A model generated the notes under the pieces. The model worked only from the letters and a program-made list of their open reading frames with translations, was not told where the DNA came from and made no database searches. A program made the position numbers and the translations under genes. From an uncultured Acidobacteriota bacterium (GTDB lineage: Bacteria > Acidobacteriota > Thermoanaerobaculia > Multivoradales > UBA5704): 64,000 nt of DNA. Below, piece by piece: positions 9,611-31,457 of the stretch. Location: NCBI GenBank assembly GCA_963700145.1, contig OY969474.1, forward strand, positions 864,001 to 928,000, read 5' to 3'. Numbering within the stretch: position 1 is the stretch's first letter; every line of letters starts with the position of its first letter.

Positions 9611-9613
9611 CGG

Positions 9614-10021: not shown

Positions 10022-10037
10022 GGCGCGGAACGCCAGC

Positions 10038-13000: not shown

Positions 13001-14981
13001 CACCCGCTTCGAGCAGGACGAGATAGTGATCGATCAGCGCCTTCGCCAGCGTTGTCGCCTTGGTTTCCTTCACAGCGTCTTCGGGTTCGGCGAATCGCGA
13101 CTGCAGATGCTCAGCCAGCCGCTGGTGGGACAGGCGATAGACGCTCCGGCCGCCTTCGCCCGCTTCGACCACGTACCGGCCGGCCAAACCGAGAAGCCAG
13201 TAAATGTCGTCACGCGTGTAGATAGTTGATGCTGGCGAGAGAGCGGTCGCCGCGATCGCCCAGAGATCGTCGGGCAAGCCGGCGCCCTTGCCCCAAGTCA
13301 GCGTCGCGAGAACTTCGAGCGCCGCCTGCGGGAGCTCGACGTCGTGCCGGCGGAGCGGCGGGATACGCGCCAGGTCGCGGTCAAACGCGTCGGCAAGGGT
13401 CCGACTGAGTTGTGTTTCCCACCCGGCGGTCTCCGTGTCGATGGGTTCGGCTCGGAGCTGAGCGGTGATGACCCTGGCGAGCAGGAAGATCCCTTCGTCC
13501 TCTTCGCTCGCCAGGCGAAGGATGGCTCTCGCGATCTCAGCCGGGTCCATGGCGGGCGGTCCGGCGGCAGCGAGGCGTTTCGCCACGTAGCCGTGCAGGT
13601 CTTCGCGAGTAGCCTCGCGGAGAGCCTCCTCGCCGAGGTCTACCACCTCGGTGGGAGCCAGGCGCTGAATCAGCGAGGCCCCTCCGTCCGGGGCCGCCAC
13701 CTCGCGCGTACCGATGAGCACTCTGGAGACGGGCGCGAGCAGACGAAGGATGTCGTCGGCGATCTGCCATGCACCGTGGCCCGCCTCGTCGAGGCCGTCG
13801 ACCACGATGAGCGGGCGGCTTCTGCTCCGCTCGATGTCGCCTAGAAGGTCTCCGCGATTGCGCGGGCCGGATGGGTTCGACGGCAGCAGGCCGATGCGCA
13901 CGAGCTGCTCGTCGATCGCTTGCACAACCTGTTCGCCGGTAAGGCCGCGCGCGTGCACGTGGGCCTGCACCGAGCCTTCGCCGGGGTCCGCGTGTTCGAG
14001 CGGGCCGTGGCTGAGGAGCAGCGCACGCTCGGCGGGGTTCGAGAGGCTTACGATCCTGCCGACCACGGCTGACTTGCCGGAGCCGGCCGGTCCCGTCACC
14101 ACCAGGATGCCGGGTTGACGCGCTTGGAGCCACGCCACGATGCATGCCAGTGGCGTCACGCGCCCCGTGAAGTAGAAACCTTCCTCCTCCGGGTCGATCC
14201 CACGCGCCGCGAGGAGCAGGTGCTCGATAACCTGCGCCAGGGCCTGGGGATCGAAGTGCGGGTTCGGGAGCATCGTCCAGGCGTTGCCCTGCTGCACAAA
14301 GACGGGTTCCTGCTCCGCATCCCACTCCTTGATCAGTGCGTCGACGAGGTCGTCGCCCCGGACGCCGGCGTTGTGGGCGCTCCAACGGAGCATGAGCTCT
14401 GGCGTGCTCGGGCCCTTCTGGAGGAGCTTGCTCAAGCGCTCGGCGAAGATGCCGTCACGGGCTCGCTCGAGCGCCTGAGCGGACGTCACTACGCCGAACC
14501 ACACCCGCTCCGCGTGGGCCGGCCACGCCGCCAGGACCGCCTCGGCGACCTCAAGCGCCGGCAGTGCGCCGCCGCCTGAGTAGCAGGTGTCGAGGATGAG
14601 CAAGATCTGGCTGGCTCCGGTGCGCGCGGCCATCCCCGCCAGCAACTCGGGCGTGAGATCCGGAGCCCCGCTGCGCGGGCTGTTCCTGGCGATCAGGCGG
14701 AGTCTTCCCTCCGGTGTCCGATCGCCGTGACCCGCCCACATGAGGATCAGAGATCCTCCCTGCAGCAGCGAGTCGTTGGGAAGGGCCTCCTCGAGCAGTG
14801 GGATCACGTCCTCTCGGCGCGGATCCGGAATGACCCGCCCTTCGTACGACAGGCTCGTAAGCACCCCGCAGACTGCCTCAACGTCGGGAACTGCACGCGG
14901 CAGCGCCTCGTAGCTGTCGTAGGTGCCGACCGCCACGCCTACGAAGAGCCGAATCGGCCGTGGCTCCGGGGCCGGCGTCAC
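10038..14981 (-). CDS. Caspase-like (C14) protease + STAND/AAA NTPase + TPR array protein
   Basis: WAGHG and LDTCYSG (His/Cys dyad), Walker A GPAGSGKS, Walker B IVVDGLDE, and about 14 TPR-like repeats of 45 aa. Confidence 0.88.
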   Translation of the reverse strand: MTPAPEPRPIRLFVGVAVGTYDSYEALPRAVPDVEAVCGVLTSLSYEGRVIPDPRREDVIPLLEEALPNDSLLQGGSLILMWAGHGDRTPEGRLRLIARNSPRSGAPDLTPELLAGMAARTGASQILLILDTCYSGGGALPALEVAEAVLAAWPAHAERVWFGVVTSAQALERARDGIFAERLSKLLQKGPSTPELMLRWSAHNAGVRGDDLVDALIKEWDAEQEPVFVQQGNAWTMLPNPHFDPQALAQVIEHLLLAARGIDPEEEGFYFTGRVTPLACIVAWLQARQPGILVVTGPAGSGKSAVVGRIVSLSNPAERALLLSHGPLEHADPGEGSVQAHVHARGLTGEQVVQAIDEQLVRIGLLPSNPSGPRNRGDLLGDIERSRSRPLIVVDGLDEAGHGAWQIADDILRLLAPVSRVLIGTREVAAPDGGASLIQRLAPTEVVDLGEEALREATREDLHGYVAKRLAAAGPPAMDPAEIARAILRLASEEDEGIFLLARVITAQLRAEPIDTETAGWETQLSRTLADAFDRDLARIPPLRRHDVELPQAALEVLATLTWGKGAGLPDDLWAIAATALSPASTIYTRDDIYWLLGLAGRYVVEAGEGGRSVYRLSHQRLAEHLQSRFAEPEDAVKETKATTLAKALIDHYLVLLEAGEPPTATTYLWRYAWLHGAESGAPGIELVRRLADRDAPAFLPGLGRALDYLGASYSEVGHRQEALVPSQEAVEIYRALSAANPAFLPNLAGALNNLGNRYGEVGKRQEAFASTQEAVAIYRGLAATNPAFLPNLAGTLNNLGGRYSELGRRWEAFPLTEEAAAIYRDLAATNPAFLPNLAGTLNNLGTRYGELGRRQEAFASTQEAVAIYRDLATTNPAFLPDLASALNNLGGRYSEVGRREEAFAPTEEALVIGRELAATNRRFLPDLASTLTNLGNRHSELGRRQEAFAPTEEAVAIYRDLAATNPGFLLDLARALNNLGIRHSELGHRQEALASTQEAVAIYSNLDADEPAFLPHFAMALTNLGASYGQLGRRQEALAPSAEAVQIYHDLSASNPAFLPDLAAALNSLGNRYGELSRRQEAFASTQQAVALVRDLAATNPAFLPDLASALNNLGGRYNQLGCRQEAFACTQEAVVLYRNLAAANPAFLPDLASALNNLAGHHDELGQEALASTQEAVAIWRDLAATNPAFLPDLARALNNLGTGHAVLGRHEEALAPSEEAVAIYRDLAAVNPGLLPRLALALNNLGNTYSECDRRQEALALIEEAVAIYRDLAAANPEFPLGLAKALHNLDRRYREVGDAVSAEEAWRLTIEVVGNSAQQAFLRLRQAQTRDPDDRRTVDDLLAALALAPAARRDLLADVHATARQLRGRGASWFDAAWREATGEALPAWLALESEHVKRVEQWLAASPATASRQFFAEHAGELLAESTDLALEEIALGFRHPSEIEGFRQLLAQARADGVDEAYRPLLARDLVIQWMAADLAAKRSLLAERREELLGDGAAVLATLQEQHPDDPNLGVHAALLALARSGQEDSAFAALGDPTHIPELLANLARRDEIAALEALASLGLFVDVPPAVQAVVWFHRAVTLALRSQAELALEALREARRLDSGQVTDWLGLLVELSPKYPEVVVLSQALIAKTSGA
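11085..12895 (-). repeat. About 14 tandem 135-bp coding repeats (TPR-like)
   Basis: Unit AFLPDLASALNNLG.RY.ELGRRQEA...QEAVAIYRDLAATNP. Boundaries are approximate. Confidence 0.85.
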
Positions 14982-16390
14982 ACCGCCTCCGGATCCCAGA
15001 CCAGCACGCAGGTGGTGACCGCCTCCACCCAGCCGGCGGCCGCCTCGCCGGCGTCGACGACGATGCGGTAGGCGCCCGGCGCGAGAGGGCCGAGCGTGCC
15101 GCGCCGGACCTCGCGCTCGCGGCGCAGGCTCGCGACCTCGACCGCCCTGCCGCGCTCGTCGATCGCTCTCGCCTGGAGGCTCAGCCGCTCCTCGCGCGCC
15201 GGCAGCGCCGCGACACGCACCACCTCGCCGGCGCCGACCATCTCGTCCACCTCGACGCCCAGCTCGACGCCCGGCTCCGCCCTGCGGACCACGGGGCTCG
15301 CAGTGAGGATGCCTTCGATCTGGTCGAGGACGGCCTGGTTGCTCTGCAAGGCACCGTGCTGGTCGGCGACCCAGTGGATGCCCGGCGCGTCGGGCCGCAA
15401 CCCGCTCGGGGTCGCCGATAGGCAGGGAACGGTGGCGTCGCCGCCTTCGTCGTCGCCGGAGATCGTGCCGACGGGCTCGATCAGCTCGCCGGCGACGCGC
15501 GCGGTCGTCGCCGTCGGCTGCCGGAAACCGACGATCGGGTGCAGGTCGTAGGCGCCCGGCGGTCGCGCGACCGCCGCCTGGTCGAGCTCATCGTGGAAGC
15601 GCATGGCGTCGGCGACCATGGCAGAGTCGAGCTCGGGGAGCTCGACCTCCGTCGTCTTGCGCAGCTCCCCCGCTGACTCGACGCAGGCGTACTCGGGTAA
15701 GAGCTGGTGCAGCGCCGGCAGGCTGCGGCCGAAGGCCGTGAGGTCGAGCCGCAGCGGCCCGATCCCCTTGCGGACGCCATTCACCAACTGGCCGAGCGCG
15801 TTGAGCGCGCCGCGATAGGGCGTGCCGAGGGTGATCACTTTGCGGGTGACCTCGGCCCCGCCCTCCATCTCGATGTACCAGCGGGCGACGAGACCGCCCA
15901 TTGAATGGCAGATGAAGATCAGCTTGGCGTCGGCGAAGCGCCCGCCCTGCGACCGCCAGCGCTCGAGCACCGGTTCGATGATCTTCGTGAGGCGCCGGGC
16001 GTTGTAGCGGTTCGACAGGCGCCAGTCGTAGGGCACGGGTAGGAGGTTAGGGATGCGGTCTGGGTCACTCGGTGACGCCTCGACGAGGTGAAACCGCGAG
16101 CGAAGCCCGTCGAGGAGCTTGCTGTAGCCGAGGTTCCAGCTCCACACGCCGGGTAAGACATGTAGGTCCGGCATGAGCGCCACTGGCTCGACCCCATCGT
16201 CCGGGTGCTCGTCACCGATCCCTGCCGGCAATGCGAGTTGACGGATTGAGCTGCCGAAGGTTGCGATGGCTCGAAGCGCGGCGCCCGCGGACGGCGCCCA
16301 GACAAGCCGGCCGTCCTGAGCCAGGGTGCTGCCCAAGATGCCCGGCAGGACGACGATCACGTCGCGGAGGACGTGAGGCCCGGCAGCCAT
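14978..16390 (-). CDS. Alpha/beta-hydrolase, LCAT/PGAP1-like lipase-acyltransferase with extra C-terminal beta domain
   Basis: LPGILGS, YDWR, CHSMGG nucleophile elbow, GTPYRGA, GDATVP and HGAL. Its stop overlaps the GTG start of the caspase-STAND gene. Confidence 0.88.
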   Translation of the reverse strand: MAAGPHVLRDVIVVLPGILGSTLAQDGRLVWAPSAGAALRAIATFGSSIRQLALPAGIGDEHPDDGVEPVALMPDLHVLPGVWSWNLGYSKLLDGLRSRFHLVEASPSDPDRIPNLLPVPYDWRLSNRYNARRLTKIIEPVLERWRSQGGRFADAKLIFICHSMGGLVARWYIEMEGGAEVTRKVITLGTPYRGALNALGQLVNGVRKGIGPLRLDLTAFGRSLPALHQLLPEYACVESAGELRKTTEVELPELDSAMVADAMRFHDELDQAAVARPPGAYDLHPIVGFRQPTATTARVAGELIEPVGTISGDDEGGDATVPCLSATPSGLRPDAPGIHWVADQHGALQSNQAVLDQIEGILTASPVVRRAEPGVELGVEVDEMVGAGEVVRVAALPAREERLSLQARAIDERGRAVEVASLRREREVRRGTLGPLAPGAYRIVVDAGEAAAGWVEAVTTCVLVWDPEAV

Positions 16391-16482
16391 CCTCTCCTCC
16401 GATGCGGCGTCGAGGCGATCCCGCTGCGCGCAGGTGTCAGTGCGATTTTACCGCTCGGCGCAGGCTTGCCCGCCCGCCCGCC

Positions 16483-19400
16483 TTAGAGCGGCAGGTGGTC
16501 CGCGTAGCAGATCCGGCTTTCGACCTGGAACCCGCCGGTCGGGGACGGGTCGGCGGGGAGCCGCTCCCACTCCTCGACGACCACCCGCCAGTCCGCGTTT
16601 TCGCCCGGGCGACGCGGCGCCAGGGCCTGGGGCAGCTCGATCTGGCCGGCCCAGGAGACGACGGTGCCGTCGATGCCGAGGATCGGCAGGTCGACCTGCG
16701 CCACCGCCTGCCAGCCGAGGTCCGTGCCCACCGCCGCAACGCGCCGCTCGAGGCGGGCGCGGACGGTGCGCGAGGCTTGCACGTGGGCGACGAACGGCGG
16801 CGAGAAGATGAGCGAGGGCAGGAAGGTCTTCGGCACCCCGACCGGCCCGGTGACGACGACCCGGACGTGGCGGTCGTCGGGCCGCGTCAGCGTCGCCGTG
16901 CGCTCCGGCGTCAGCTGCGCGAAGTCGCACACCGTGACCGCCGAGAGGTGCATCCCGGGGTTGGAGTCGGGCTGGTAGCGGGCGACCGCGAGCCGGACGA
17001 AGGGCCAGAAGGCGGTGCGCGGGTCGAAGGCGACGTCGACGAACCAGAGCCCGCGCGCCGGCGAGAACTCCGGCTCGTAGCCGAGGACCCACACCGGGGG
17101 TGAGCCGGGGATGTCGACCAGGGAGCGCGCCGCCGGCGGGCCGACGGGACGGCCCGGGACGCGGCGGTCGTCGAGCCCGGTCAAGTGCAGGACGTCGGAC
17201 AGCGGCAGCGCCGCGCGGGCGGCCGGACCCTGCTGGGCCCACACCGGATCGGACGCCCACTGGCTGGTCGACTTCACCACCTCGGCGTCGTCGCTGGAGG
17301 CCAGGAGCACGCCGAGCAGCTCGCCGTCGCCGGTCGCGTACCACGGCCGGTCGAGGTAGATCCGCACGCCGCTGCGGCGGGTGCGGCGCAGCCCGAACGG
17401 CTGCGCGGGCTCGGTCCGCTCGTCCCACAGGAACAGCGGCAGCACGTCGCGCACCGCGGCCTTGGGCGGCCGCGCGCTGCTCAGGACGTTGAGCCGGCGC
17501 ACCGGGCCGACGAGCGACAGGTCGTCCACCGACGGCGTGACCAGCGGCGAGAAGTACTCCCGGTAGCGGGTCGTCGCCCGCACCCGGTAGTCCACCGTGC
17601 GGTGCTTGGTGTCGCCCATCTGGTGCACCGCCTTGTGGAGGCGCAGCGCGCCGCCGTCGGGGAGCGGCACACTGGAGTCCGTGCCGGCGAGCACGACGAG
17701 GTCCTCGTCGTAGCCGATCTCGGTGCCGCAGGCCGCGGCCACCACGTCCACCCGCTCCGGCGCCGGCTTGGCGACGTCGTCCACCCACTCGCTCCAGGCC
17801 CCTTCGACGTCGATCCGCTCGGTGCTCGGGCCGTGGACGTCGACGCCGCCGAACAGCGTCACCGCGGTGTCGAGGTTGGCGCGGATGGGCACCAGGATGG
17901 TCGGCCGCGGCACCTCGACCGGCTTGGGCACCGCGTGCACCAGGGTCATCTCGACCGACGGCGTCAGCCACCAGAACCAGCCGTCCGCGGCCGCCTCGGC
18001 GAGGATGTTGAGCGCGCGCAGCACCGGCGGCAGCGAGCGCCACAGCCCGAGGAGATCGAGCGAGGCGCGGTCCAGGCAGGACGACAGGCGCATCCGGAGC
18101 TGCTCGCCGGGCGGCACGGTGATGCGCAGCTCGGTGCCGTCCACCACCGCCCCCAGCTCGTCGCCGGCGGCGAGGACGAGCCGGTACGGCCGCGGCTCCG
18201 GCCAGGCGCCGGGGTAGCGCAGCGTGGTGCCTTCGACGGCCAGCAGGCCGGTCAGCCGGTGGTCCTTGCCGGCGTCCGGGAAGGTCAGCGAAATGCCGGC
18301 GGCCAGCGGGTCGGGCAGGTAGGGCACCACCAGCTCGTCGACGTCGTGGGCGACGTACTGCCCCGGGGTCGGCGGCTCGCCGCGCGGCAGCTCCTCGGGC
18401 GTCGCGTGCACCGGCTCCTCCGCCGTCGGCGAGAGGTGGAGCGTGACGCCGGGCTGCGGCAGGCGCTGCCCGGGGTTCGCCAGGTCGGCCACCGTGGTGT
18501 CGAAGAACGTGCCGGCCTCGCGCAGCGCCACCGCCAGCGCGGCGCGCACCGCGGCGGCCGAGCCGGAGCCGATGGCGGCGTCGAACATGCCGTGCAGCTC
18601 CGCCTCGAGCTGGCTGGTCTTGGGCGGTGCCAGGTGCCGCTGGCTGTCCTCGCCCCAGGCGAGGTCGACGGTCGGGTGCGCGGCGATCGTCGCCGGGACG
18701 TAGACCTCCGGCGGCACGATCGTGACCTCCAGGCCGCCCTCCTCCGCCGGCCCTGCCACGCCGGAGCGGATGACCAGCCGCTGCAGCGACTCGCCCTCGC
18801 TGAAGGCGTGCCGGGGCACGATGGCCGGCTCGATCACCGGGTCCCAGCGCAGGAACGGCCGCGGCGTCGTCACCGTCTGGCCGCTCTGGGCCACGGCCTC
18901 GGCGAGCGCCAGGCCGACGAAGCCGCGCTGCGTGCGCAGGTCGGTCGCCAGCGCGCGGCCGAAGACGGGCGCGGGTGTCTGGGCGTCGGTGCGGACCAGC
19001 AGGTGCGGCGCCTCGGCCGCCGCCACGTCGAAGGCGTTCTCGATCCGCTCCCGCCGCGCCGGGCCGGCGGCGCGCACGCGGGCGGCGCGGGCCGCCACCC
19101 GCGACACCACGAGCCGGTCGACGTCGGCGACGCCGGTGGGCTCGACCTCCGCCAGGCTCAGGCCCGGCACGCCGCGCCCCTCGATGGGGCCGGCGGCGCG
19201 CGGCGGGCGCAGCGCGCGCACCTCCTGCCGCACGACGTCCAGGCCGACCCGCGCCGACTCCAAGGCGGCCGGCACCGTCGCCTCGAGCGGCTTCGCCGCC
19301 AGCGTCGTGGCGGCGAAGGCGGTGACCGATTCCTCGATCGCGGGCCCGCCGCCGCTGTCGCCGTCCGGCGCGCCGGCGACGACGTGCGGCCGACTGTTGC

Positions 19401-21060
19401 CGGCCAGGTCGACGGCGTAGGCGCGGAAGGCGTAGCTCCGGCCGTAGCGGAGCCGCGGCAGCGTCCCGGGCTCGATCGCGGTGCGGCTGACCACCGGATT
19501 GACGGGGTCGGGGTCGGGCGGCGCCTCGTCGACCACTCGCTCCTCGCCGTCGACGTGGACGACGGTGCGTCCCGGCCGCGGCGCCGACAGCGACCAGCCG
19601 TCCCAGCCGGCCAGCACCTCGTGGGCGTTCTTGGGCGCCGCCGGCTGCTCGTCCGCCTGGGTCAGCGAGGCGCCCTGCAGGAACCCTTCGTCCGGGGCGT
19701 CGTCGAGGACCGCCGCGCCCTCCACCTCGACGTGCAGCCGCCGCAGGTGCAGCGAGTGCCAGTCGTCGCTGACGTCGTCCCAGACCTCGAGGCGCAGGCC
19801 GCGGCTGATCTGCTCCTGCAGCAGCTGGGCCGCGGTGCCGGAGAGGAGCGCGGCGTCCTTCGCCGCGGCGCCCTGGAGCCGGTCGTGGAGGACCTGCGCC
19901 CGGTCCTGGCGGGCAATGGCGAGGCCGGTGGCGCGCAGGCTGGGCGGCGCCGAGTTGACCCGGTCGCCGTTGTTCTCGATCGCCAAGAGGCGCGGCAGGT
20001 TGCGGACGTGCATCTCGAGCTTGAGGCCGGCGGCGTCGGGATCGAGGTCGAGCACCGTGAAGGTCTTCTCGTCGCCCAGGCGGAGCATGCCGTGCGTCCA
20101 CTCCGCCGAGGCGGCCTTGGCGGTGAAGGTCTGGCCGGAGACCTCGCAGGCGGTGCGCGGCTGCACGTTGATCGAGTTGGCGAGGTCGGGCACCACCAGG
20201 CCGGCCTGGATCCACACCAGGTCGGCGAGCTGCGCCACGTCGTCGACCCGCAGGTCGATCACCAGCCCGAGCCGCCGCAGCAGCGGCGAGAGGTCGCCGA
20301 GCATGCCGGCGCGCTCGTGGAAGTCGGGCTCCGGCTTGCGCACGGGAGGCGGGACCGTGCCGGGCGTCGGCCGCTCCTGGTAGGGGCGCTGCTCCTCGTC
20401 GCGCTGGTAGTAGCGGCGGGCGCGGTGCAGGTCGGCGACGAGCTGGAGCAGCGGCTGCCCCGTCGTCGACGTCGCGTCGGGGCCCAGGAAGCCGCCGTTG
20501 GTCAGGGCGTCGAGCCGCTTGGTGAGGTGCGCTTCGAAGGAATGCTTGTCGACGGGATGCTCGACGAGCTGGGCGACCGACAGCCGGTGCCCGATGTCGA
20601 CGCCCAGGGTGTTCAGCAGCGGCCGGGTGAGGGCGTTGCCGGCGACGGTGGGCGCGGCCACGGGGGAGGAGTACATCGACACCCCGTGGACGAAGAGGGC
20701 GTGCTGCTGCATCCGGTGGGCCGGGAAGGTGCGCCAGGGCACCGCCGTGTGGTCGGGCGTCTGCCAGGGCCGCACCGCCAGCTCCGGCGGGAAGACCCGC
20801 GGCCAGAGCTCGGGCTCCAGCTCGTCGAGGAGCGGCGTCACCGCGATCGTGACGTTCGTGTTGTTGCTCTTCCGGCCGCGCAGGGTGAGCTGCGCGCCCG
20901 CCAGCCGCGCCGTCCAGTCGACGATGCGGAGGAAGTCCGCCACCACCCCCTCGGCGCCGTCCGGGGTGAGCCGGTGGGTGACGAAGAGCGAGACGTGGAA
21001 CGGCTCGCCGGGGTCCGCCGAGTACGGCAGCGCGGTGACGAGGAAGGACTCGGTCGCCAT
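16483..21060 (-). CDS. Giant hypothetical protein (1525 aa) with beta-sandwich/FN3-like segments
   Basis: Normal amino-acid composition and GC3-rich codons, unlike the overlapping shadow ORFs. LPRLRYGRSYAFRAYAVDLAGN is an FN3-like strand. Starts 3 nt after the upstream gene. Confidence 0.85.
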   Translation of the reverse strand: MATESFLVTALPYSADPGEPFHVSLFVTHRLTPDGAEGVVADFLRIVDWTARLAGAQLTLRGRKSNNTNVTIAVTPLLDELEPELWPRVFPPELAVRPWQTPDHTAVPWRTFPAHRMQQHALFVHGVSMYSSPVAAPTVAGNALTRPLLNTLGVDIGHRLSVAQLVEHPVDKHSFEAHLTKRLDALTNGGFLGPDATSTTGQPLLQLVADLHRARRYYQRDEEQRPYQERPTPGTVPPPVRKPEPDFHERAGMLGDLSPLLRRLGLVIDLRVDDVAQLADLVWIQAGLVVPDLANSINVQPRTACEVSGQTFTAKAASAEWTHGMLRLGDEKTFTVLDLDPDAAGLKLEMHVRNLPRLLAIENNGDRVNSAPPSLRATGLAIARQDRAQVLHDRLQGAAAKDAALLSGTAAQLLQEQISRGLRLEVWDDVSDDWHSLHLRRLHVEVEGAAVLDDAPDEGFLQGASLTQADEQPAAPKNAHEVLAGWDGWSLSAPRPGRTVVHVDGEERVVDEAPPDPDPVNPVVSRTAIEPGTLPRLRYGRSYAFRAYAVDLAGNSRPHVVAGAPDGDSGGGPAIEESVTAFAATTLAAKPLEATVPAALESARVGLDVVRQEVRALRPPRAAGPIEGRGVPGLSLAEVEPTGVADVDRLVVSRVAARAARVRAAGPARRERIENAFDVAAAEAPHLLVRTDAQTPAPVFGRALATDLRTQRGFVGLALAEAVAQSGQTVTTPRPFLRWDPVIEPAIVPRHAFSEGESLQRLVIRSGVAGPAEEGGLEVTIVPPEVYVPATIAAHPTVDLAWGEDSQRHLAPPKTSQLEAELHGMFDAAIGSGSAAAVRAALAVALREAGTFFDTTVADLANPGQRLPQPGVTLHLSPTAEEPVHATPEELPRGEPPTPGQYVAHDVDELVVPYLPDPLAAGISLTFPDAGKDHRLTGLLAVEGTTLRYPGAWPEPRPYRLVLAAGDELGAVVDGTELRITVPPGEQLRMRLSSCLDRASLDLLGLWRSLPPVLRALNILAEAAADGWFWWLTPSVEMTLVHAVPKPVEVPRPTILVPIRANLDTAVTLFGGVDVHGPSTERIDVEGAWSEWVDDVAKPAPERVDVVAAACGTEIGYDEDLVVLAGTDSSVPLPDGGALRLHKAVHQMGDTKHRTVDYRVRATTRYREYFSPLVTPSVDDLSLVGPVRRLNVLSSARPPKAAVRDVLPLFLWDERTEPAQPFGLRRTRRSGVRIYLDRPWYATGDGELLGVLLASSDDAEVVKSTSQWASDPVWAQQGPAARAALPLSDVLHLTGLDDRRVPGRPVGPPAARSLVDIPGSPPVWVLGYEPEFSPARGLWFVDVAFDPRTAFWPFVRLAVARYQPDSNPGMHLSAVTVCDFAQLTPERTATLTRPDDRHVRVVVTGPVGVPKTFLPSLIFSPPFVAHVQASRTVRARLERRVAAVGTDLGWQAVAQVDLPILGIDGTVVSWAGQIELPQALAPRRPGENADWRVVVEEWERLPADPSPTGGFQVESRICYADHLPL

Positions 21061-21063
21061 GGC

Positions 21064-24000
21064 TCAGGCCGCCGCGAAGGCGGCGCAGTAGGCGTCCCAC
21101 GCCGGTGCGCTGCCGTCAGGTTGGACGTCGAGGATCTCGGCAAACGTCGGGTCGCCGTTGGAGCCGGCGAGCCGGCGCTCGCAGGAGACGCTGACCGAGA
21201 AGGAGAAGAAGAAGATCTCGACCTCGATCTCGATCGAGGCGCGGCCGACCAGCTTGCCGGTGTCGAACTCGTAGGTCAGCGACAGCTCGAGCGTGATGGA
21301 GGCGGAGATCAGCCCCAAGACGTCGACCTCGCCGCGGATGCGGAAGTAGCCGGTGAGCGACCCCTTGTCGACCTCCAGGCGCAGGTAGATGCCGACCATG
21401 ATCGAGACGGAGCCGGAAGCGACGCCCAGGTTGATGGAGAGCGAGGCGCCGGCTTCGAGGGCCATCTCGAGGAGCACCAGCCCCTTGGGGGAGAGCCGGA
21501 TGCCGACGAAGCCGCCGCCGCCGATCATCATCACGGTCAGGCGGAACGGCTTCTCGCGGGTGCAGAAGAAGAAGCCGACGGTCACCGCCTCGCCCAGGAA
21601 CGGCACCCGCGCGTCGGCCCCCAGGCTGATGTTCTCCAGGCTGAAGACCCCGACCGAGACGTTGGGCAGCGCGATGTCGAAGCCGGCCGTCACGCCCTCC
21701 GGGCCGACGTCGACGTACGGCGGGTCGGCGAAGCCGTCGAAGGGGATCAGGTCCTTGAGGGTCTCGATGAAGGAGAGGACGCCGACGAACTCGATGCCGC
21801 GGAAGACGACGTCCACCTCGGGCTTGCGGCCGCTGGCGGCGCGGAAGGCCAGCCGGTCGAAGGCCAGCCGCAGCAGCGGCGCGCCGGGGAAGAGGTTGAG
21901 GGAGAACTCGCGCAGCTCGGCGAGGACGTCGGCGCCGACGCCGCCCGAGCCCGAGGCGCGCGCCTCGACCGACAGCAGCAGGCCGTCCGGGCGCACGACG
22001 AACAGCGCGTTGGCGTCCGGGCCCTTGGGGAAGTTGGTGAGCGCCGGCCGCCAGTCGAAGCGGGCGCGCACGCTCAGGCCCTCGGGGTCGAGGCCGTTGA
22101 CGAACGCCGTGATCGTCTCGATGGTCTCGGCGATGGCGGCCGCGTCGCGGATCGGCCCGAGGCCGTTGACCAGCCGCTCCAGCTCCGCCTTGACCGGCGG
22201 CGGCAGCGGCTGCTCGCGGACCACGGCGCCCAGCTCGTTCACCAGGTCGGCCAGGTCGTCCAGCACGCCGGAGACGGCGGCGGTGACGTCGGCCGGCGTG
22301 CTCGGCGTGTCGAGGGCGAGCAGGTCCCCCACCGCATCCACCAGCGCGGCGACGCGGGTCTGCAGCTGGCCGCGCACCGCCTCCAGCCGCGCCCGCGCCG
22401 CCTCTGCCTGGTCGCGCAAGGCGGTGGTGGCCGCCGCGGCGGCGTCCTCCGCCAGCCGCGCAGCGCTGCGCTGGACGGCGGCCTGCAGCGCCTCGAGGTC
22501 GGCGAGCAGGCCGGCGACGACGTCGAGCTGCTCGGTCAGGAACGCCGGCGCGCGGTCCAGCCCGAGCACGGCGAGGATGTCGGTGAGGTCGAAGAGCCCG
22601 AAGAGCTTCGGCAGCACCCCGGCGAGGAACTTCGTCGGATTGAACCGCTCCGCCGGCGGCTTGTTGACCAGGTCGTCGAGGTCGCCGACGGCGCCGAGCG
22701 CCCGGGAGAGGCCGCGCACCGGCAGGTCCGGCTGGATGAAGCCGCCGGAGCGGTCGGTGCCGCCGCCGAACGAGATCGTCGCCGCAGTCTTGAGGGCGAG
22801 GAAGACCTGCGGCTCGGCGTTCTTGCCGGTGAAGCCCAAGTCGAGGTAGGGCTGGGCGTAGCGAACGGTCGTCGTCGGCGACGCCGGGGCCAGGTGGCGC
22901 ATCGCGGGCACCACGACGTCGGCCTCGTCGAGCTCCGGCGTCGAGGTCAGCTCGCCCGGCTTGCCCGCCGTGCCGGTGAAGCGCAAGGCCACCGTCTCCA
23001 GGGCGGCGTCGCCCGGCTTGGCGCTCAGGGCGTAGGCGACGGACTGGCCGTTGCCGGAGATGGGGCGGTCGGGATCGTTGACGTACGCCAGGCGGACCTT
23101 GTTCCGCTCCGCGGCGTTCTTGCCGAGATGGGCGGCCACGAAGAGGAGCGGGGCCTGCAGGCGCACCCGCCGGCCGTCGTGATCGATGCAGTCGAGGGTG
23201 AAGCGGAATTTGGCCGACCCCTCGACGACGGGCCAGAAGATCTCGTCCCCCTGCACCACCTGCGGCGTCCCCGGCGCCAGGGGGTCGCGGATGTCCGGCG
23301 TCACCAGCGGCCGGATGCGGATCTCGCGGAACGGCATGCGGCGGTCCTCGAACGTCTTGACCGGCTCGCTGACGACCAGGAACTTGCGCTGGTAGAGGTA
23401 GGCCTTCGGGCCTGCCGGCTCCTTGATCTTGCGCTCGGTCACCTTGACCAGCGCGCAGCGGTGGCCGAAGCAGAAGAAGTAGCCCGGGTAGACCACGCGG
23501 ACGAACTGGTCGCGCCCCATCGGGGCTTCGTGGTCCCAGGAGATGATGCTCGGCAGCGCTTCGGTCGCGTAGGGCTCGATGTCCCAACTGCCGTGCAGGT
23601 CGAGCCAGGCGCCGAGGGCCGAGAGGTACAGCCGCTCCGCCTCGACCGGCAGCGGCACCGCGATCTCCGGGTCGGCGCTCTGGCGCACCAGGATGACGCG
23701 GTCGAGGCCGTCGAGGGACATGCGGAACGGCAGCAGGTTGTGCGCGGCCGGCTCGACGCCTTCCTTGTCCCGCGCCCAGATCGCGCGCACCGCCCGCTGC
23801 GGGTCGGCGCGCTCGTCGACGGTGACCTCGTCGTCCTTGACCCGCCGGACGCCCAGCCGGCTGTGCCACAGCTCGACCCGCTCGACGTCCGCCGGCGCGG
23901 CCTGCGGCGTCGTGGCGTGCGCGAACCCGCCCCGCGCGCTCGGCGAGAGGATCAGCCGGTACGGCGCCTCGATGGCGGTCTCGTCGGCGCGCGGCACGCG

Positions 24001-24924
24001 GGGGCGTAGGAGCCGCGGCCGGAGGCGGTCGGCCGGCCCCACCAGCAGGTCGCCCAGGCCGCCGGCGATGTCGCTGCGGCTGAGGTTGACGGCGCTCTCG
24101 CGGGCGAGGAGCTGCCGCGCGGCGCGCAGGGCGGACGCGGCGGCCAGCACGGTCCCGACCGACGCTTCCCCCTGGCGCGCGCGTCGGCCCCGCACGTCGC
24201 GCAGCACCAGGCCCGCGGCCGACCGCGCCAGCTCCAGGCCGCCGGGCAGCGTGACGATGACCAGGTCGCCTCCCCCGCCGAACGGGCCGCGGGACGCCGG
24301 GCGCGGCGTGGCGAGCGGGGCGACGAGCAGCGGCAGCCGCGACATGGCGGCGAGCACGCCCGCGCTGCTGAAGCCGATCCGCTCCCTCGCCGGCACCGCG
24401 TACACCAGCCGGGAGCCGCGGGCGGCCAGGACGTCGATCGGCGGCGGCTCCGGGGGCTCGTTGCCGGCATCGTCCGGGACCGCGCTCGGCGGCGGCGACG
24501 CCCCCGGCGCCGGCGCACTCGGCGGCAAGGTGGTCGGAGGAACCTTCTGGTTGTTCTCGAGGGCGTAGAAGGCTTCCTCGCCCAGGTGCTGGAACGGCAG
24601 CCGCACCTCCAGCCGGGCGTTGCTGCCCTGCGGCACCAGCTCGGGGCCGTCCGCGCCGTCGGCCATCTCCAGGCCCCACCCGAGGACGTCGAGGACGACG
24701 AGGTCGAGCGGGCGCAACACCCGGAACGCGTGCGAGGGACGGGGACCGCTCGGGGCGGCGAGGTCGCCGAACCCCGGCGCGAGGCCGGCGACGCCGGCAA
24801 GGCTCAGGTGGGGCGCGACCGCGAGGCGGAGGGGGTCGCCGTCGAACCGGACGAGCGCGACGTTCGCCTGCCGGCGGCTGCGGCGGCGGGGACTGCCACG
24901 GCGGGGAGGGTGTCTTGCGCTCAC
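21064..24924 (-). CDS. Giant hypothetical protein (1286 aa) with central helical bundle and hydrophobic beta-rich C-terminus
   Basis: Coding-like composition. Ala/Leu-rich amphipathic helices near residues 780-940, then about 300 aa of alternating hydrophobic beta strands. Exact start uncertain. Confidence 0.85.
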   Translation of the reverse strand: MSARHPPRRGSPRRRSRRQANVALVRFDGDPLRLAVAPHLSLAGVAGLAPGFGDLAAPSGPRPSHAFRVLRPLDLVVLDVLGWGLEMADGADGPELVPQGSNARLEVRLPFQHLGEEAFYALENNQKVPPTTLPPSAPAPGASPPPSAVPDDAGNEPPEPPPIDVLAARGSRLVYAVPARERIGFSSAGVLAAMSRLPLLVAPLATPRPASRGPFGGGGDLVIVTLPGGLELARSAAGLVLRDVRGRRARQGEASVGTVLAAASALRAARQLLARESAVNLSRSDIAGGLGDLLVGPADRLRPRLLRPRVPRADETAIEAPYRLILSPSARGGFAHATTPQAAPADVERVELWHSRLGVRRVKDDEVTVDERADPQRAVRAIWARDKEGVEPAAHNLLPFRMSLDGLDRVILVRQSADPEIAVPLPVEAERLYLSALGAWLDLHGSWDIEPYATEALPSIISWDHEAPMGRDQFVRVVYPGYFFCFGHRCALVKVTERKIKEPAGPKAYLYQRKFLVVSEPVKTFEDRRMPFREIRIRPLVTPDIRDPLAPGTPQVVQGDEIFWPVVEGSAKFRFTLDCIDHDGRRVRLQAPLLFVAAHLGKNAAERNKVRLAYVNDPDRPISGNGQSVAYALSAKPGDAALETVALRFTGTAGKPGELTSTPELDEADVVVPAMRHLAPASPTTTVRYAQPYLDLGFTGKNAEPQVFLALKTAATISFGGGTDRSGGFIQPDLPVRGLSRALGAVGDLDDLVNKPPAERFNPTKFLAGVLPKLFGLFDLTDILAVLGLDRAPAFLTEQLDVVAGLLADLEALQAAVQRSAARLAEDAAAAATTALRDQAEAARARLEAVRGQLQTRVAALVDAVGDLLALDTPSTPADVTAAVSGVLDDLADLVNELGAVVREQPLPPPVKAELERLVNGLGPIRDAAAIAETIETITAFVNGLDPEGLSVRARFDWRPALTNFPKGPDANALFVVRPDGLLLSVEARASGSGGVGADVLAELREFSLNLFPGAPLLRLAFDRLAFRAASGRKPEVDVVFRGIEFVGVLSFIETLKDLIPFDGFADPPYVDVGPEGVTAGFDIALPNVSVGVFSLENISLGADARVPFLGEAVTVGFFFCTREKPFRLTVMMIGGGGFVGIRLSPKGLVLLEMALEAGASLSINLGVASGSVSIMVGIYLRLEVDKGSLTGYFRIRGEVDVLGLISASITLELSLTYEFDTGKLVGRASIEIEVEIFFFSFSVSVSCERRLAGSNGDPTFAEILDVQPDGSAPAWDAYCAAFAAA

Positions 24925-24954
24925 GGCCTCGGACCGTGCGGCGGCTACGAGCCG

Positions 24955-24984
24955 ACGCTACTGCCGTACTGGCGCCAGGGTCAA
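24955..24984 (-). promoter_or_regulatory. Candidate sigma70 promoter for the giant-protein pair
   Basis: Minus strand TTGACC-N18-TAGCGT, 30 nt upstream of the GTG start. Confidence 0.45.
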
Positions 24985-25059
24985 GACTTCGTTACGAGGG
25001 TGCTGCAGGAGTGGGCCGCCCGCTCGCGCCGGCGGCCCACTCGACAGCGTGCACGTTGC

Positions 25060-28000
25060 CTACCGGAGGACGAACCTCGCGCTCACCTCCCGGCCGTCCG
25101 GAAGCTCGAGCGTGACGACCCAGTCACCGGCCGACAGGGCGCTCGTGTCCAGGTTGTAGATCCACTGCCCCGCGGATGCGCGGAAGGCGAGGCCGCCGCC
25201 GTTCGAGCTCCCGGCGTCGAGGTCGAGCCCCTCGAGACCGATCGGCGCGCCGTTGACCGCCAGACCGGCGATGACCGGCGCCGCGACGTCCTCGCCGCCG
25301 AGCGGCGTGCCGCCGCACGAGAGCTGGAGCTTGAGCGGGATGGTGCTGCCCTGCCGGAAGTCGTGCCCCGGCAGCGGCGGCACCTGCCCCGCCGGCACCA
25401 GCGCGGCCAACGGCGGCAGCAGACCCGCGAGCCCCACCGCGACGGTGACCTCCACGGTGTCCGGATCGGACTCGAGCTCCCCGTCGCTCACCACCAGCGC
25501 GATGCTGGAGCTGCCCAGGGGGAGGGACACGGCCGGAGCCACGCCCGTCGCCGTGCCGCCGCCCTCGGGGAACGGCCCGGTCCAGGCGTAGGTGAGGGGC
25601 TGGCCTTCGGGATCGAACGAGCCGGAGCCGTCGAGGGTGACCGGCGTGAGCCCGGCGCCGGCGCAGGCGACGGTCTGGTCGGCGCCGGCATCGGCCACCG
25701 GCGGCAAATTGCTGATCGCGCAGGGGCTGTCGATGAAGAACCGGTCGTCGTGCACGTCCGCCTGGCCGGCGGCGTCGAAGATCCGGGCGACGAGGTGGAA
25801 GAACCCGGAGCCCGGGACCATGAACTTGAACGGCAGCCGGTCGAGGGCGACCGGGGTCCAGGTGGCGGCGCCGTCCAGGCTGTACTCGACGCGCTCGAGC
25901 CCGGCCAGGTCGGAACCCGCCTGGGCGTCGATCGTCACCTGGACGCAGGTGGTGGGCAGCTCGTCGAGCTTGCGCACGGTGAGCTGGAGGGACGGCGGCG
26001 CCTCGGCGACGACGATCGCGACCGAGCTGGCGCCGGCGTTGCCCTGGCCGTCGGCGGCCTCGACCGTCAAGGTGTGCCGGCCCGTCGAGAGCGAGGTGAG
26101 CGGCAGGCTCGCTCCGCTGCCCAACGCGCCGTCGAGGCTGGAGGTCCAGCGGACCGCGTCGCCGTCGAGGATGCCGTCGTCGACGTCGTAGGCGTGGACG
26201 CGCATCCAGACGAGGTCGCCGCGGCGGAAGATCTCGCCGGCGGACGGGCCGATGATCTGCACCGTGGGGAGCTTGCGCGAGACGCCGAAGGCCGGGGACA
26301 CGGCGCTGCCGCTGTTGGCGCCGTCGGAGGCGGTCACTCGCACGAGCGCGCCCGCGCCGCCGGGGACCTGGTCGAAGTCGACGACCAGGAACGGCTCACC
26401 CTCGGTCTCGCCCAGGCGCGACCAGGTCTCGCCGCCGTCCGTGGAGTAGTCGACCGCGCTCCAGTGGCGGCTGCTGTCCGGGTCGGCGATCGTCCAGGTC
26501 AGCTCCTGAATCCCGGCGAGGCTGGCGCCGGCGGTCGGGAAGGTGATCGCCACCTGCGGCGACGCGCCCGCGAGGGCGACCGAGCCGAGCTCGGCGCCGC
26601 TCGGGCCCAGGACGACGAGCGCGGCGGCGCCGGCCTGCACCGGCACCAGCTCGAAGAACACCGGGTCGCCCTCCGCCTCGCCGGCGACGCTCTCGGATGA
26701 CGGCACGGTCGGGACGAAGCGGCGGGTGAAGAGCACCTGGCCGCCGAGCCCGCGCACCTCGATCCGGTGCTCGCCCTCCCCCTCGTCCGTCGAGCCCAGG
26801 GCCTCGACGCGGTAGACCGGGCCGAGGAGGAGCCCGAGCTGCGCGTCGAGCGCGCCGCCGACGGTCCAGAAGTCGCCCTCGACCGCCGACACTGCGGCCG
26901 CGAACCCGAAGTCGGCGTCGAGGTTGGGCATGGCGCGGGTGTAGGTATGGCCGGAGACCCACCGCGGCGTGCAGTAGCTCATCCAGTCATAGCGGTCGTC
27001 GCCGAGGACGATGCTGCGGTTCGCGACGTCGAAGCCCACCTCGATGCCGTTGGCGGAGCGCAGACGGTTGTCGGCGAACGGCCAGTCGGTGCCGCCGTCG
27101 ACGGCGATGTTGTAGCAGCCGGGCGCCGCCGCGGTCCGTGGGACGTCGGTGTTGGTGTGCTGCCGGCCGAGCATGTGCCCGGTCTCGTGGGCGACGGTCT
27201 CGAAGTTGACCTCGTTGCCGTGGCGGACGGTGCTGGTGCGGCTCATCGCGCCGCGGCTCGGAATGCCGTCGGCGATGCCGCCGATGCCGCCGGGCGCCTG
27301 GTCGCGGACCATCCCGTAGTAGTGCCGCTTGGTCCCGAAGAGGTCGCGGAAGCGGTCGAAGAGACCGAAGAGGTCGCCGATGCGGGCCACCGTGTCCACC
27401 CACCAGTCCGTGGCTTCGTTGGCGTCGAAGGCGCCGTTGCCGTCGCGGTCGTAGGGCGCCTGGTCGCGGCGCACGAAGCTGTTGGAGACCGACACCGACA
27501 CGTCGTCGGTCGGCGCGGTGCGGCGCAGGAAGTCGATCATGCCGCCCAGTGCCGCCGCCGGCGCGCACTGCCACACCCGGCGGTTCGGCGCCACCTGGAG
27601 GCGCTCGTTGCAGACCGAGACCGCGCGCAAGGAGAGCGCGTCGGCGTCGCGGCTGCGCAGCGGCAGCTCGTGCTTCTGCAGCTCCTGGTCCTGGTCGGTG
27701 AGCAGGCGGATCGTGGCGTCCCAGTTGCCGCCGCCGGGCCGGAAGTAGAAGTCGAGCGACTGGCAGCCGTTCTCGAGCCGGCGCTGCTGCACCGGCGTGC
27801 AGTTCGGCTGCAGCCGGATCTGGCGGGTCTGCTGGTTGCCGTCCAGGGTGGCTTCGACTTTCACCGTGATCGCGCTCTGGACCTCGTCGAAGTAGACGCG
27901 CAGCACCGCGGGCTTGTCCTCGATGAGCGGGACCGGCGGCTCGCGGTCGCCCTGCAGGTCGGCCTTGAGGTCGTCGATCTTCTGGAAGTCCTGGATGGCC

Positions 28001-28683
28001 TGGCTGAGCTCGACGGCGTGGATCGTGATCTTGCGGCAGACCTTGAGGTCGTCGATCCCGGTCTGGTTGACGTTGCCGCTGACCCGGACCCGCCGGATCA
28101 CGTTCTGGTCCGTGCGGACGAACAGCGGGTCCCACTTGTTGAAGGTGCCGTTCGGATCGCCGCCCGGCCCCTGGTTGAAGTTCGGCGCGCCGGTGGCCGA
28201 GGCGACCTGGTTGTTGCCGGTGTCGAACGCCTGCATCGTGACGGTGACGAACGAGGAGTAGCGGAACTCGACGCGCGAAGTCGCGTCGGCGATCACGATG
28301 TCGCGCGCGCCGGGGGCGCCGCCCAGCCAGAAGGCGATGGTCTGAGGAGACGGCTCGAAGGCGAAGTTCCCCGTGCCGCCGGCGTCGGCGTCGATGATGC
28401 CGAGCCAGCCGGGCGAGGTGATGCCGTCGAACGCCGGGATGGCGGCGAGGTCGCCCACGCCCTCGAAGTCGATCGTCGTGCAGACCTGACCGTCCTCGAC
28501 GGTCTGCTGCTGGCTGTGGACCGAGCGCAGGCCGGGGGCGCGACTGGACGGCGCCGTCTGGCTCTGCACCGTCGCGGTGCCCGAGTAGAGCAAGGTCGCG
28601 GGATCGGTCTGGGCGAAAGCGGCGTCCATCGGGAGGGAAACGACGAAGAGACAGAGCAACGACCTCTTCAGGTGCATACGCAC
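25060..28683 (-). CDS. Secreted multidomain zinc metalloprotease (metzincin, M66-like) with Ig/PKD domains and PxKF-like C-terminal domain
   Basis: Signal peptide, HETGHMLGRQH (HExxHxxGxxH), downstream DWMSYC Met-turn, NLPPVADAGADQTV...LDGSGSFDPEG PKD-like module, and GSTIPLKLQL...GQWIYNLDT tail. Confidence 0.85.
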   Translation of the reverse strand: MRMHLKRSLLCLFVVSLPMDAAFAQTDPATLLYSGTATVQSQTAPSSRAPGLRSVHSQQQTVEDGQVCTTIDFEGVGDLAAIPAFDGITSPGWLGIIDADAGGTGNFAFEPSPQTIAFWLGGAPGARDIVIADATSRVEFRYSSFVTVTMQAFDTGNNQVASATGAPNFNQGPGGDPNGTFNKWDPLFVRTDQNVIRRVRVSGNVNQTGIDDLKVCRKITIHAVELSQAIQDFQKIDDLKADLQGDREPPVPLIEDKPAVLRVYFDEVQSAITVKVEATLDGNQQTRQIRLQPNCTPVQQRRLENGCQSLDFYFRPGGGNWDATIRLLTDQDQELQKHELPLRSRDADALSLRAVSVCNERLQVAPNRRVWQCAPAAALGGMIDFLRRTAPTDDVSVSVSNSFVRRDQAPYDRDGNGAFDANEATDWWVDTVARIGDLFGLFDRFRDLFGTKRHYYGMVRDQAPGGIGGIADGIPSRGAMSRTSTVRHGNEVNFETVAHETGHMLGRQHTNTDVPRTAAAPGCYNIAVDGGTDWPFADNRLRSANGIEVGFDVANRSIVLGDDRYDWMSYCTPRWVSGHTYTRAMPNLDADFGFAAAVSAVEGDFWTVGGALDAQLGLLLGPVYRVEALGSTDEGEGEHRIEVRGLGGQVLFTRRFVPTVPSSESVAGEAEGDPVFFELVPVQAGAAALVVLGPSGAELGSVALAGASPQVAITFPTAGASLAGIQELTWTIADPDSSRHWSAVDYSTDGGETWSRLGETEGEPFLVVDFDQVPGGAGALVRVTASDGANSGSAVSPAFGVSRKLPTVQIIGPSAGEIFRRGDLVWMRVHAYDVDDGILDGDAVRWTSSLDGALGSGASLPLTSLSTGRHTLTVEAADGQGNAGASSVAIVVAEAPPSLQLTVRKLDELPTTCVQVTIDAQAGSDLAGLERVEYSLDGAATWTPVALDRLPFKFMVPGSGFFHLVARIFDAAGQADVHDDRFFIDSPCAISNLPPVADAGADQTVACAGAGLTPVTLDGSGSFDPEGQPLTYAWTGPFPEGGGTATGVAPAVSLPLGSSSIALVVSDGELESDPDTVEVTVAVGLAGLLPPLAALVPAGQVPPLPGHDFRQGSTIPLKLQLSCGGTPLGGEDVAAPVIAGLAVNGAPIGLEGLDLDAGSSNGGGLAFRASAGQWIYNLDTSALSAGDWVVTLELPDGREVSARFVLR

Positions 28684-28726
28684 TCCTGCCTTGGAGAGAA
28701 ACGGCGATTTGTTTGACTGCAGTTTA

Positions 28727-28756
28727 AGCGTACTGCCAAACGGCCGGATGGGTCAA
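28727..28756 (-). promoter_or_regulatory. Candidate sigma70 promoter for the metalloprotease gene
   Basis: Minus strand TTGACC-N18-TACGCT. Confidence 0.45.
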
Positions 28757-28788
28757 CGGCTGCTGAACTACGGTAAGGTTACAGGACC

Positions 28789-29178: not shown

Positions 29179-29191
29179 CCGCTTCCGGCTG

Positions 29192-31358: not shown

Positions 31359-31457
31359 CGCCCTCTGCGCGCGAGCGACAGCTCGTCGATCCCACCGTCG
31401 AGCCTGCCCGCTTCTTCGTGCGGATCGGCTTTGTGCGGGTTGGTCAAGGGGTAATCG

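Follow-up and report, generated by a model that had tools for sequence, protein, structure and literature searches.

A horizontally mobile pair of giant genes from an uncultured acidobacterium belongs to no described family and is predicted to encode a barrel-containing heterodimer

We analysed a 64,000-nucleotide stretch of DNA (the window; contig OY969474.1, positions 864,001 to 928,000) from an uncultured Acidobacteriota bacterium, in which two very large genes, here called A and B, lie next to each other. Comparison with related loci identifies A and B as a self-contained, horizontally mobile two-gene module, and the pair belongs to no described family. Structure prediction suggests that the two proteins form a tight heterodimer in which the N-terminal half of B holds a barrel-like domain at the C-terminal end of A. 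An earlier reading of the same DNA, made from its letters without database searches (the original prediction), had linked the pair to a lipase gene and an NLR-like caspase gene immediately downstream. As described below, the comparative data contradict this link.

The two open reading frames (ORFs) are where the original prediction had placed them, 3 nt apart and both on the minus strand (Table 1). The junction is compatible with translational coupling, so the two genes may be coupled in this way. The window is GC-rich (62–77% GC content), and GC content at third codon positions (GC3) is 0.97 for A and 0.98 for B. Against the closest relative, a locus designated L001 from a Thermoanaerobaculia metagenome-assembled genome (MAG), A and B have ratios of nonsynonymous to synonymous substitution rates (dN/dS) of 0.284 and 0.282, respectively. 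These dN/dS and GC3 values indicate that A and B are real, intact genes under purifying selection, and full-length homologues are known for both. In neither protein does any 19-residue segment reach a Kyte-Doolittle value of 1.6, and A and B therefore lack a signal peptide or transmembrane helix, as had been proposed for signal peptides. By contrast, a candidate promoter that had been assigned to the pair was not recovered: a sigma-70-type scan of window positions 14500–25500 gave 0 sites compared with 0.1 expected, and the organism may use other promoter types.

Neither protein could be assigned to a known family. Searches of Pfam and NCBIfam gave no family above noise for A or B and, for A, no Pfam family at E ≤ 0.01. 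In PADLOC-DB 2.0, A matched only JetC, with a coiled-coil-type match at E 0.006, and B matched nothing; in PHROGs, A had one coiled-coil-type match (E 0.0013) and B had none. Sequence searches of the PDB matched no chain to A or B, profile searches of it gave coiled-coil noise only, and a viral structure library gave no match at E ≤ 1e-3. Comparison of A with B by hhalign showed that they are unrelated to each other. We also rejected Vip3 toxins as relatives of A, as these gave low-probability helical matches only. A full-text literature search, which excluded subscription journals and bioRxiv supplements, found no paper on the A/B family and none on DUF6603, a family to which we return below.

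Among 8000 candidates scored, 733 relatives of A were found at E ≤ 1e-3, all of them annotated as 'hypothetical'. An exhaustive search of representative clusters (50% identity), run with a single protein, gave 4302 clusters at E ≤ 1e-3, of which 1986 remain at the stricter threshold of E ≤ 1e-30. The phyla represented are Actinomycetota, Acidobacteriota, Bacillota, Pseudomonadota, Chloroflexota and Gemmatimonadota, and most hosts are monoderm Actinomycetota or Bacillus. Proteins from Acidobacteriota and Actinomycetota are 62–66% identical in A. Of 301 genomes from the phylum of the window, 7 were found to carry A, with none in the same family (0 of 1) or the same order (0 of 10); these counts are lower bounds because a stricter first look was used.

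We then asked whether A and B always occur together and which genes flank them, a survey that had been proposed with the original prediction. In 68 of the 72 genome loci A is immediately followed, in the same orientation, by a homologue of B, in agreement with the earlier view that the two form a tight unit. The remaining four lack a full B: two end with A and leave no room on the contig (L022 and L055), one holds only a fragment of A (L072), and in the last (L069) ORF clustering shows that a fragment of B is present. Profile hidden Markov models confirmed both genes in all seven plasmid loci tested (three from Bacillus and the others from Diaphorobacter, Streptomyces, Sinorhizobium and Agrobacterium). 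No fusion of A with B was found, and 13 longer relatives of A are expanded forms of A without the B region. Nocardia abscessus has two tandem A+B pairs (L049, 3435–17096). When ORFs of the flanks were clustered, only A and B were common to the loci; the next cluster was found in 12 loci and reflects synteny within one genus. Flanks are otherwise variable, and the 80 nearest neighbours in 40 loci are mostly housekeeping genes; a few encode proteases or, like these in the Nocardia group, lipases, and a few others are of defence type.

The distribution also points to mobility. Matches occur in 23 plasmid records, including plasmids of the Bacillus cereus group, Rhizobium, Sinorhizobium, Streptomyces and Cupriavidus, and in none of 50,697 phage records. 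At one locus, from a Micromonosporaceae MAG (L065, 6215–20303), the block is flanked by two genes with rve_3 integrase domains of the insertion sequence type. At this same locus the start of A is overlapped by a gene whose 339-aa product contains a T4 gp19 tail-tube domain (E 5e-8). This gp19-like protein is unrelated to A or B and lies beside A in 1 of 72 loci, with no counterpart in the other 71. A phage tail or contractile injection component was rejected as an identity for the pair on the basis of this single locus, the coiled-coil noise in PHROGs and the lack of phage matches.

The proposed link to the lipase and the NLR-like caspase, as a joint membrane-attack or defence machine, came from gene arrangement. 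The lipase and caspase genes share a strand with the pair, there are 92 nt between the stop of B and the start of the lipase gene (16390), and a scan found no terminator-like site between them. However, homologues of the lipase, the caspase-NLR protein and the metalloprotease that lies upstream of A were found in none of the 72 related loci (tblastn, E ≤ 1e-5). In addition, window positions 8937–10045 and 16477–24996 are collinear with adjacent segments of L001 at 96% and 92% nucleotide identity, and collinearity resumes at 29207–30250. The 6.4 kb at 10046–16476, which hold the caspase and lipase genes, and the 4.2 kb at 24997–29206, which hold the metalloprotease gene, have no counterpart in L001. 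There, a PAN-domain gene lies directly before A and a MerR gene directly after B; the same two genes are in the window at 29195–30283 and 9032–9610. The lipase-caspase cassette begins 6 nt past the stop of B and, because it is absent from L001 while its surroundings are collinear, it is a separate indel. The caspase gene also differs in GC3, at 0.82 compared with 0.97–0.98 for A and B. On these comparative grounds the pair is independent of the neighbouring lipase, caspase and protease genes, and a joint machine is already contradicted and extremely improbable.

To describe the proteins themselves we used AlphaFold models. The model of A covers residues 301–1286 and was built from a 53-row alignment, with a predicted local distance difference test (pLDDT) of 79.8 and a predicted template modelling score (pTM) of 0.62. 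Residues 1–300 have the lowest conservation and occupancy within the family. The conserved beta-rich domain that follows (~324–800) had no fold-search row confined to it; because barrel rows fill the fold lists, this domain is essentially unsearched and its fold has barely been tested. The long helices at 802–942 match generic helical bundles at Z 9–10, are missing in Bacillus forms and are much longer in the 2300–3100-aa forms. A strand meander then runs from 951 to 1252. The original prediction had described this order of a helical bundle followed by beta strands, ending in W..YC.AFA, and the model and the C-terminal end of A are both as described.

The C-terminal beta domain of A (951–1255) is the best-conserved part of the protein, with ~80% consensus identity, and it gave the clearest structural matches. 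VIA-align matched it to the barrels of CymA (4d5b; Z 14.4, 195 residues aligned, root-mean-square deviation 6.8 Å), OmpG (2iwv; Z 13.4, 179 aligned, 4.0 Å) and PgaA (4y25; Z 12.0, 177 aligned, 3.9 Å). A second OmpG structure (4ctd; Z 13.6, 173 aligned of a 234-residue chain, 4.9 Å) and the EspP barrel (8qn4_F; Z 12.4, 177 aligned, 5.2 Å) matched as well, and the last ~200 residues gave further matches to FhaC, TamA and BcsC at Z 10.5–11.3. The strands, which are up to 18 residues long, alternate between a hydrophobic and a small or polar face. Over the whole alignment, 11 consecutive strands have one face with Kyte-Doolittle values of +2.2 to +3.6 and another with values of –0.5 to –2.4. The C-terminal domain of A is thus predicted to resemble outer-membrane barrels of 12–16 strands. 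The membrane-type character suggested earlier for this tail gains weight from the matches at Z 12–14.4 and the hydrophobic face of the 11 strands.

The model of B covers residues 326–1525 (pLDDT 81.4, pTM 0.69) and contains, in order, mixed alpha/beta domains, a variable linker, a mixed region and three C-terminal sandwiches. The linker (561–730) has segments with pLDDT <50 and is absent from Bacillus forms. The sandwiches (model residues 718–870, ~895–1060 and 1062–1200) match fibronectin type III (FN3) or immunoglobulin (Ig)-like domains at Z 7–8.4, and FN3-like segments proposed for B from its sequence thus correspond to its last ~480 residues. Foldseek matched B to FN3 arrays at probability 1.0. 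In VIA, none of 996 re-aligned chains reached Z 8, and we read the C-terminal part of B as probably a generic sandwich array.

The two proteins are predicted to bind each other. When B residues 1–560 were co-folded with A residues 951–1286, the interface score ipSAE was 0.68 (0.70, 0.67 and 0.68 in the separate runs), compared with 0.00 for the best of three controls. As a guide, this mark is reached by 116 of 157 solved complexes and by 2 of 215 mismatched pairs, counts that are only roughly valid here because the run used its own alignments. The runs share at least 87% of their contacts, of which there are 412–440, and partner pLDDT is at least 59. A helix of B (~340–376) rests on the small/polar face of A strands 1143–1185. 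These predictions favour a tight heterodimer in which the N-terminal half of B holds the barrel of A, and they lend substance to the earlier idea that B, which consists partly of beta-sandwiches, is a partner for the tail of A.

Table 1. Features of the gene pair, its encoded proteins and flanking genes, by position in the window
Feature	Position	Strand	Description	Basis
Gene A	21064..24924	minus	1286 aa, GTG start, first of pair	ORF and translation
Gene B	16483..21060	minus	1525 aa, ATG start, second of pair	ORF and translation
A stop–B start junction	21058..21066	minus	TGA-gcc-ATG, 3-nt gap	read directly
A residues 1–300	24025..24924	minus	variable head	basic RR-containing N-terminus, (L/V)xF(D/N)PDP-like motif, FRvLRPxDLV block
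A residues ~324–800	22525..23955	minus	conserved beta-rich domain	model residues 24–500, mostly pLDDT 85–97
A residues 802–942	22099..22521	minus	long-helix bundle of family-variable length	model residues 502–642
A residues 951–1255	21160..22074	minus	long-stranded antiparallel beta domain, ~1060–1255 barrel-like	fold matches
B residues 1–560	19381..21060	minus	half predicted to clasp A barrel	complex prediction
B residues 561–730	18871..19380	minus	variable, partly disordered helical linker	low conservation and occupancy
B residues 1043–1525	16486..17934	minus	three Ig/FN3-like beta-sandwiches	fold matches
LCAT-type lipase	14978–16390	same strand as pair		PF02450, E 1.1e-10
Caspase-NACHT/AAA-TPR protein	10038–14981	same strand as pair	overlaps lipase gene by 4 nt	
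Metalloprotease with PKD/Ig-like domains	25060–28683		upstream of A, 1207 aa	

The head of A differs between lineages, and some of these differences bear on where the proteins act. LysM domains replace the head in 12 of 68 A homologues, with three LysM domains in 11 of the 12, and all of these are of Nocardia, Mycobacterium or Mycolicibacterium type. In four homologues LysM begins at residue 5, and these four therefore have no signal peptide. LysM-headed copies in Nocardia and Mycobacterium (L027, L030, L031, L033, L035, L038 and L040) often lie beside genes for probably secreted hydrolases: four subtilases, a trypsin-like protease with a LIP lipase, an astacin-hemopexin protein and a cutinase. 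The 13 giant A-like proteins (2348–3052 aa) have the full A architecture with an N-terminal extension and a longer helical middle, and no Pfam domain was found in them. Read by eye, 10 of the 13 start with a canonical twin-arginine translocation (Tat) signal peptide; an automatic filter called 3 Tat-like and 2 more merely hydrophobic. A Tat signal is present on A in all five rhizobial plasmid copies and in the Streptomyces plasmid copy, and internally in a Coriobacteriia ORF. By contrast, none of the four rhizobial B-like proteins examined has one. On Sinorhizobium meliloti plasmid pC (L083, 10167–24858), genes for an A-like protein of 3052 aa and a B-like protein of 1766 aa (E 1.9e-43 against the B profile) come directly before a tatA gene (55 aa) of the same orientation, and this block sits between virB/T4CP and traA/mobC conjugation genes.

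The window copy and 141 close family members have no export signal. Core-family A proteins (P0009–P0146) have a basic twin-arginine N-terminus followed within ~10 residues by (L/V)xF(D/N)PDP. Because this N-terminus has no hydrophobic region it is not a canonical Tat signal, and it may be a recognition motif of some kind. Together, the LysM and Tat heads suggest that in at least some branches the proteins act outside the cytoplasm and that only A is addressed. Addressing of A only would fit co-export of a pre-assembled pair.

We compared the pair with known systems that have a similar layout. The closest in domain order are the inverse autotransporters (type Ve: intimin, invasin and YeeJ). A published account gives the order in YeeJ as LysM, barrel, a segment in the barrel and an Ig-like array (PMC5595812). 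Taken together, A and B have the same order, with a LysM head (in the 12 of 68 A homologues described above), a barrel, a segment on its polar face and an Ig-like array, and autotransporter barrels (EspP, AIDA-I, Hbp and BrkA) are among the fold matches of A at Z 10.8–12.4. However, the barrel is in A and the sandwiches are in B, and none of the 13 longer A-like proteins holds the B region. A and B also have no Sec signal peptide and no PF11924 or Big_1 match, the window A has no LysM, and the barrel of A is preceded by a beta-rich domain of ~480 aa and by a helical bundle. Most hosts of the pair, moreover, have no outer membrane and no beta-barrel assembly machinery (BAM).

OmpM of Negativicutes and SlpA of Deinococcus resemble A in layout: a single polypeptide has a head that binds the cell wall, then a helical stalk and, at its C-terminal end, a beta barrel. 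A matches OmpM1 (8bym) at Z 9.6, and the SlpA assembly 8agd is a weak Foldseek match (E 2.3e-2). Unlike these proteins, A has a LysM or an unknown domain as its head and not SLH, lacks a signal peptide, has a large obligatory partner and occurs in monoderm hosts. Two-partner secretion (TpsB/FhaC with TpsA) and Omp85/TamA systems resemble the pair in having adjacent genes for one barrel and one large beta-rich protein, and A matches FhaC (Z 11.1–11.3) and TamA (Z 10.5) at the level of fold only. The pair differs from them in the absence of POTRA, Bac_surface_Ag and ShlB Pfam matches and of Sec signals, in gene order and sizes, and in the sandwiches of B, which take the place of a beta-helix.

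Two further comparisons concern the transport of A and the identity of B. In Tat hitchhiking (PaoABC, hydrogenase 2), a heterodimer is exported with a signal on one partner, as two published accounts describe (PMC4273604, PMC10924467). The likeness lies in the rhizobial and Streptomyces-plasmid branches, where the signal is on A only. A and B are not a cofactor enzyme, however, no Tat hitchhiker cargo is known that they would not exceed several-fold in size, the window A has no Tat signal, and co-export of A with B is putative. For B, the top Foldseek matches were bacterial alpha-2-macroglobulins (ECAM/YfhM, MagD), with ECAM 5a42 at E 1.1e-6 and probability 0.75 and 4rtd at probability 0.87. 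We rejected this identity: B has no match to an alpha-2-macroglobulin Pfam family, the CxEQ thioester motif is absent from B and from 37 of 37 aligned homologues, and in VIA the ECAM fragments and TEP1 reach Z 6.8, no better than generic FN3 arrays.

The original prediction had also compared the tail of A to AsmA/TamB bridges and DUF6603 (PF20248), with which A shares long amphipathic beta structure. A feature search of a protein atlas placed a DUF6603 cluster at 0.78, which we treat as a lead only. At the level of sequence this comparison was not supported. A has no Pfam match to PF05170, PF04357 or PF20248, its profile aligned to a Nocardia DUF6603 protein with a probability of 0.04 in hhalign, and BLASTP gave nothing. 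PF20248 was not found in the genome that carries the window, and DUF6603 genes occur elsewhere in three of five genomes that also carry the pair. No chain with an open beta-taco groove was among the 50 best fold rows of A, for which coordinates were not inspected.

From these results we tentatively favour the idea that the pair forms an envelope-acting heterodimer, with a barrel that its partner would keep in solution until a bilayer is encountered. In such a scheme A and B would be the two subunits of one ~300 kDa heterodimer. The lineage-variable N-terminal head of A would serve in export or targeting, and would be followed by the conserved beta-rich domain, a helical spacer of variable length and the C-terminal barrel with its hydrophobic face. 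The N-terminal half of B would wrap this barrel, with a helix laid on the small/polar face, and the C-terminal half would display the Ig/FN3-like sandwiches. The complex would act on the cell envelope and not in the cytoplasm. B would keep the barrel soluble until the head docks, which in LysM forms would be on peptidoglycan, and the barrel of A would then engage, and presumably insert into, the lipid bilayer. The result could be a weapon, antibacterial or used in competition, or else a surface structure anchored in the envelope.

Several observations weigh against this reading. Most hosts are monoderm (Actinomycetota, Bacillus) and have neither an outer membrane nor BAM for such a barrel. Export of the window's own copy is extrapolated from other branches: its A protein has an RR stretch but no Tat h-region and no LysM. 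To our knowledge, a Tat cargo of the size of A and B together would far exceed known Tat substrates, and tatA adjoins the pair on only one of the five rhizobial plasmid records. Neither the clustering of flanks nor the 80 neighbours in 40 loci revealed a toxin, enzyme or immunity gene accompanying the pair. As for the barrel, its closure is suggested solely by alignment coverage. B residues 1–560 contact 47 of 66 residues of the polar face and 27 of 66 of the hydrophobic face, the hydrophobic face of the first five strands is untouched by this part of B, and the hydrophobic face may be buried inside the full complex. Lastly, the predictor may have learned from known barrel structures that hold a helix inside, such as those of autotransporters, and part of the complex score could stem from this.

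The same data can be read in other ways. A large cytoplasmic complex with some unrelated function, in which the barrel-like domain is a buried core bound by B, no membrane is entered and the LysM and Tat heads are later add-ons of a few branches, is doubtful. In its favour, the window copy and its 141 close relatives carry no export signal and an outer membrane is missing in most hosts; both models are compact (pTM 0.62 and 0.69), and a large interface between proteins would be consistent with how strongly the barrel is conserved. As a soluble core, however, a sheet of 11 strands, some as long as 18 residues, with one face near +3 on the Kyte-Doolittle scale would be unusual, and a purely cytoplasmic role sits poorly with LysM and Tat heads that arose separately, in different branches, on one scaffold. 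A further reading is that the pair is a self-contained, Sec- and BAM-independent counterpart of type V secretion, even in monoderms, with A as a pre-folded barrel and B as a passenger with a plug helix and Ig-like display; in rhizobia the pair would be pre-assembled and exported by Tat as a hitchhiker of about half a megadalton, helped by the TatA of the operon. We consider this quite unlikely.

A role in abortive infection or other anti-phage defence, in which the sandwiches of B would sense an invader and release A so that its barrel breaches the cell's own membrane from inside, is unlikely. The patchy distribution driven by horizontal transfer and the plasmid copies are what a defence module would show, and some copies do have neighbours of defence type. 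In L028 the pair is flanked on either side by TIR-WD40 proteins, L034 has a NERD-UvrD helicase, and a B. tropicus plasmid carries a Schlafen-like helicase together with HNH genes; other examples are dpdE/F in A. vitis, restriction-modification and nuclease-helicase genes in S. meliloti, and the caspase-NACHT-TPR cassette in the window. However, most of the 80 nearest neighbours are housekeeping genes, no PADLOC model matches the pair, A and B contain no NTPase, nuclease or other usual defence domain, and the Tat signals and LysM domains point outward. It is very unlikely that, as the original prediction had suggested, the pair is a lipid-handling device, with B as a scaffold and the amphipathic sheet of A forming the wall of a cavity or groove for lipid like that of AsmA/TamB bridges or large lipid transfer proteins. 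The top three Foldseek matches of A are to microsomal triglyceride transfer protein and lipovitellin (E 3.3e-5 to 6e-4), which have the same beta-alpha-beta order, and the sheet has a hydrophobic face. These matches have probabilities of 0.13–0.28 and TM-scores of 0.07–0.08, though, and no lipid transfer protein is among the top 50 rows in VIA, which extend down to no lower than Z 9. The failure to match AsmA, TamB or DUF6603, the absence of an N-terminal membrane anchor and the mostly single-membrane hosts also speak against a lipid device.

Other features of the window lie outside the pair. The metalloprotease has a signal-like N-terminal start, M12/reprolysin-type motifs, PKD/Big domains and a PxKF-type C-terminal domain, and a GC-rich inverted repeat lies just past its stop (~25006–25040). 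At 30300–38000 the GC content drops to 62–65%, compared with 70–77% around it, and L001 lacks an equivalent of this region at the corresponding position; the region contains genes for an ABC1-type kinase (32997–34904) and a radical SAM protein (34780–36453) as well as ORFs without a family. Conflict-type genes occur at 42743–45883 and 60886–64000, encoding a TPR-CHAT protease-like protein (1047 aa) and a 686-aa WD40 protein, and a Mutator-family transposase is at the end of the window (within 60886–64000).

The A family comprises 4302 clusters in six phyla, yet it has no Pfam or NCBIfam model. If the C-terminal domain of A is a true membrane barrel, then a barrel that occurs in monoderms, has no signal peptide and is held by a dedicated partner would not fit the current picture of the occurrence and biogenesis of such barrels. 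If the forms with Tat signals are truly exported together with B, the size limit of folded-protein export would be reset. If neither is true, a large unannotated two-gene module is still cleanly defined, and a false link to NLR-like caspases and lipases is removed.

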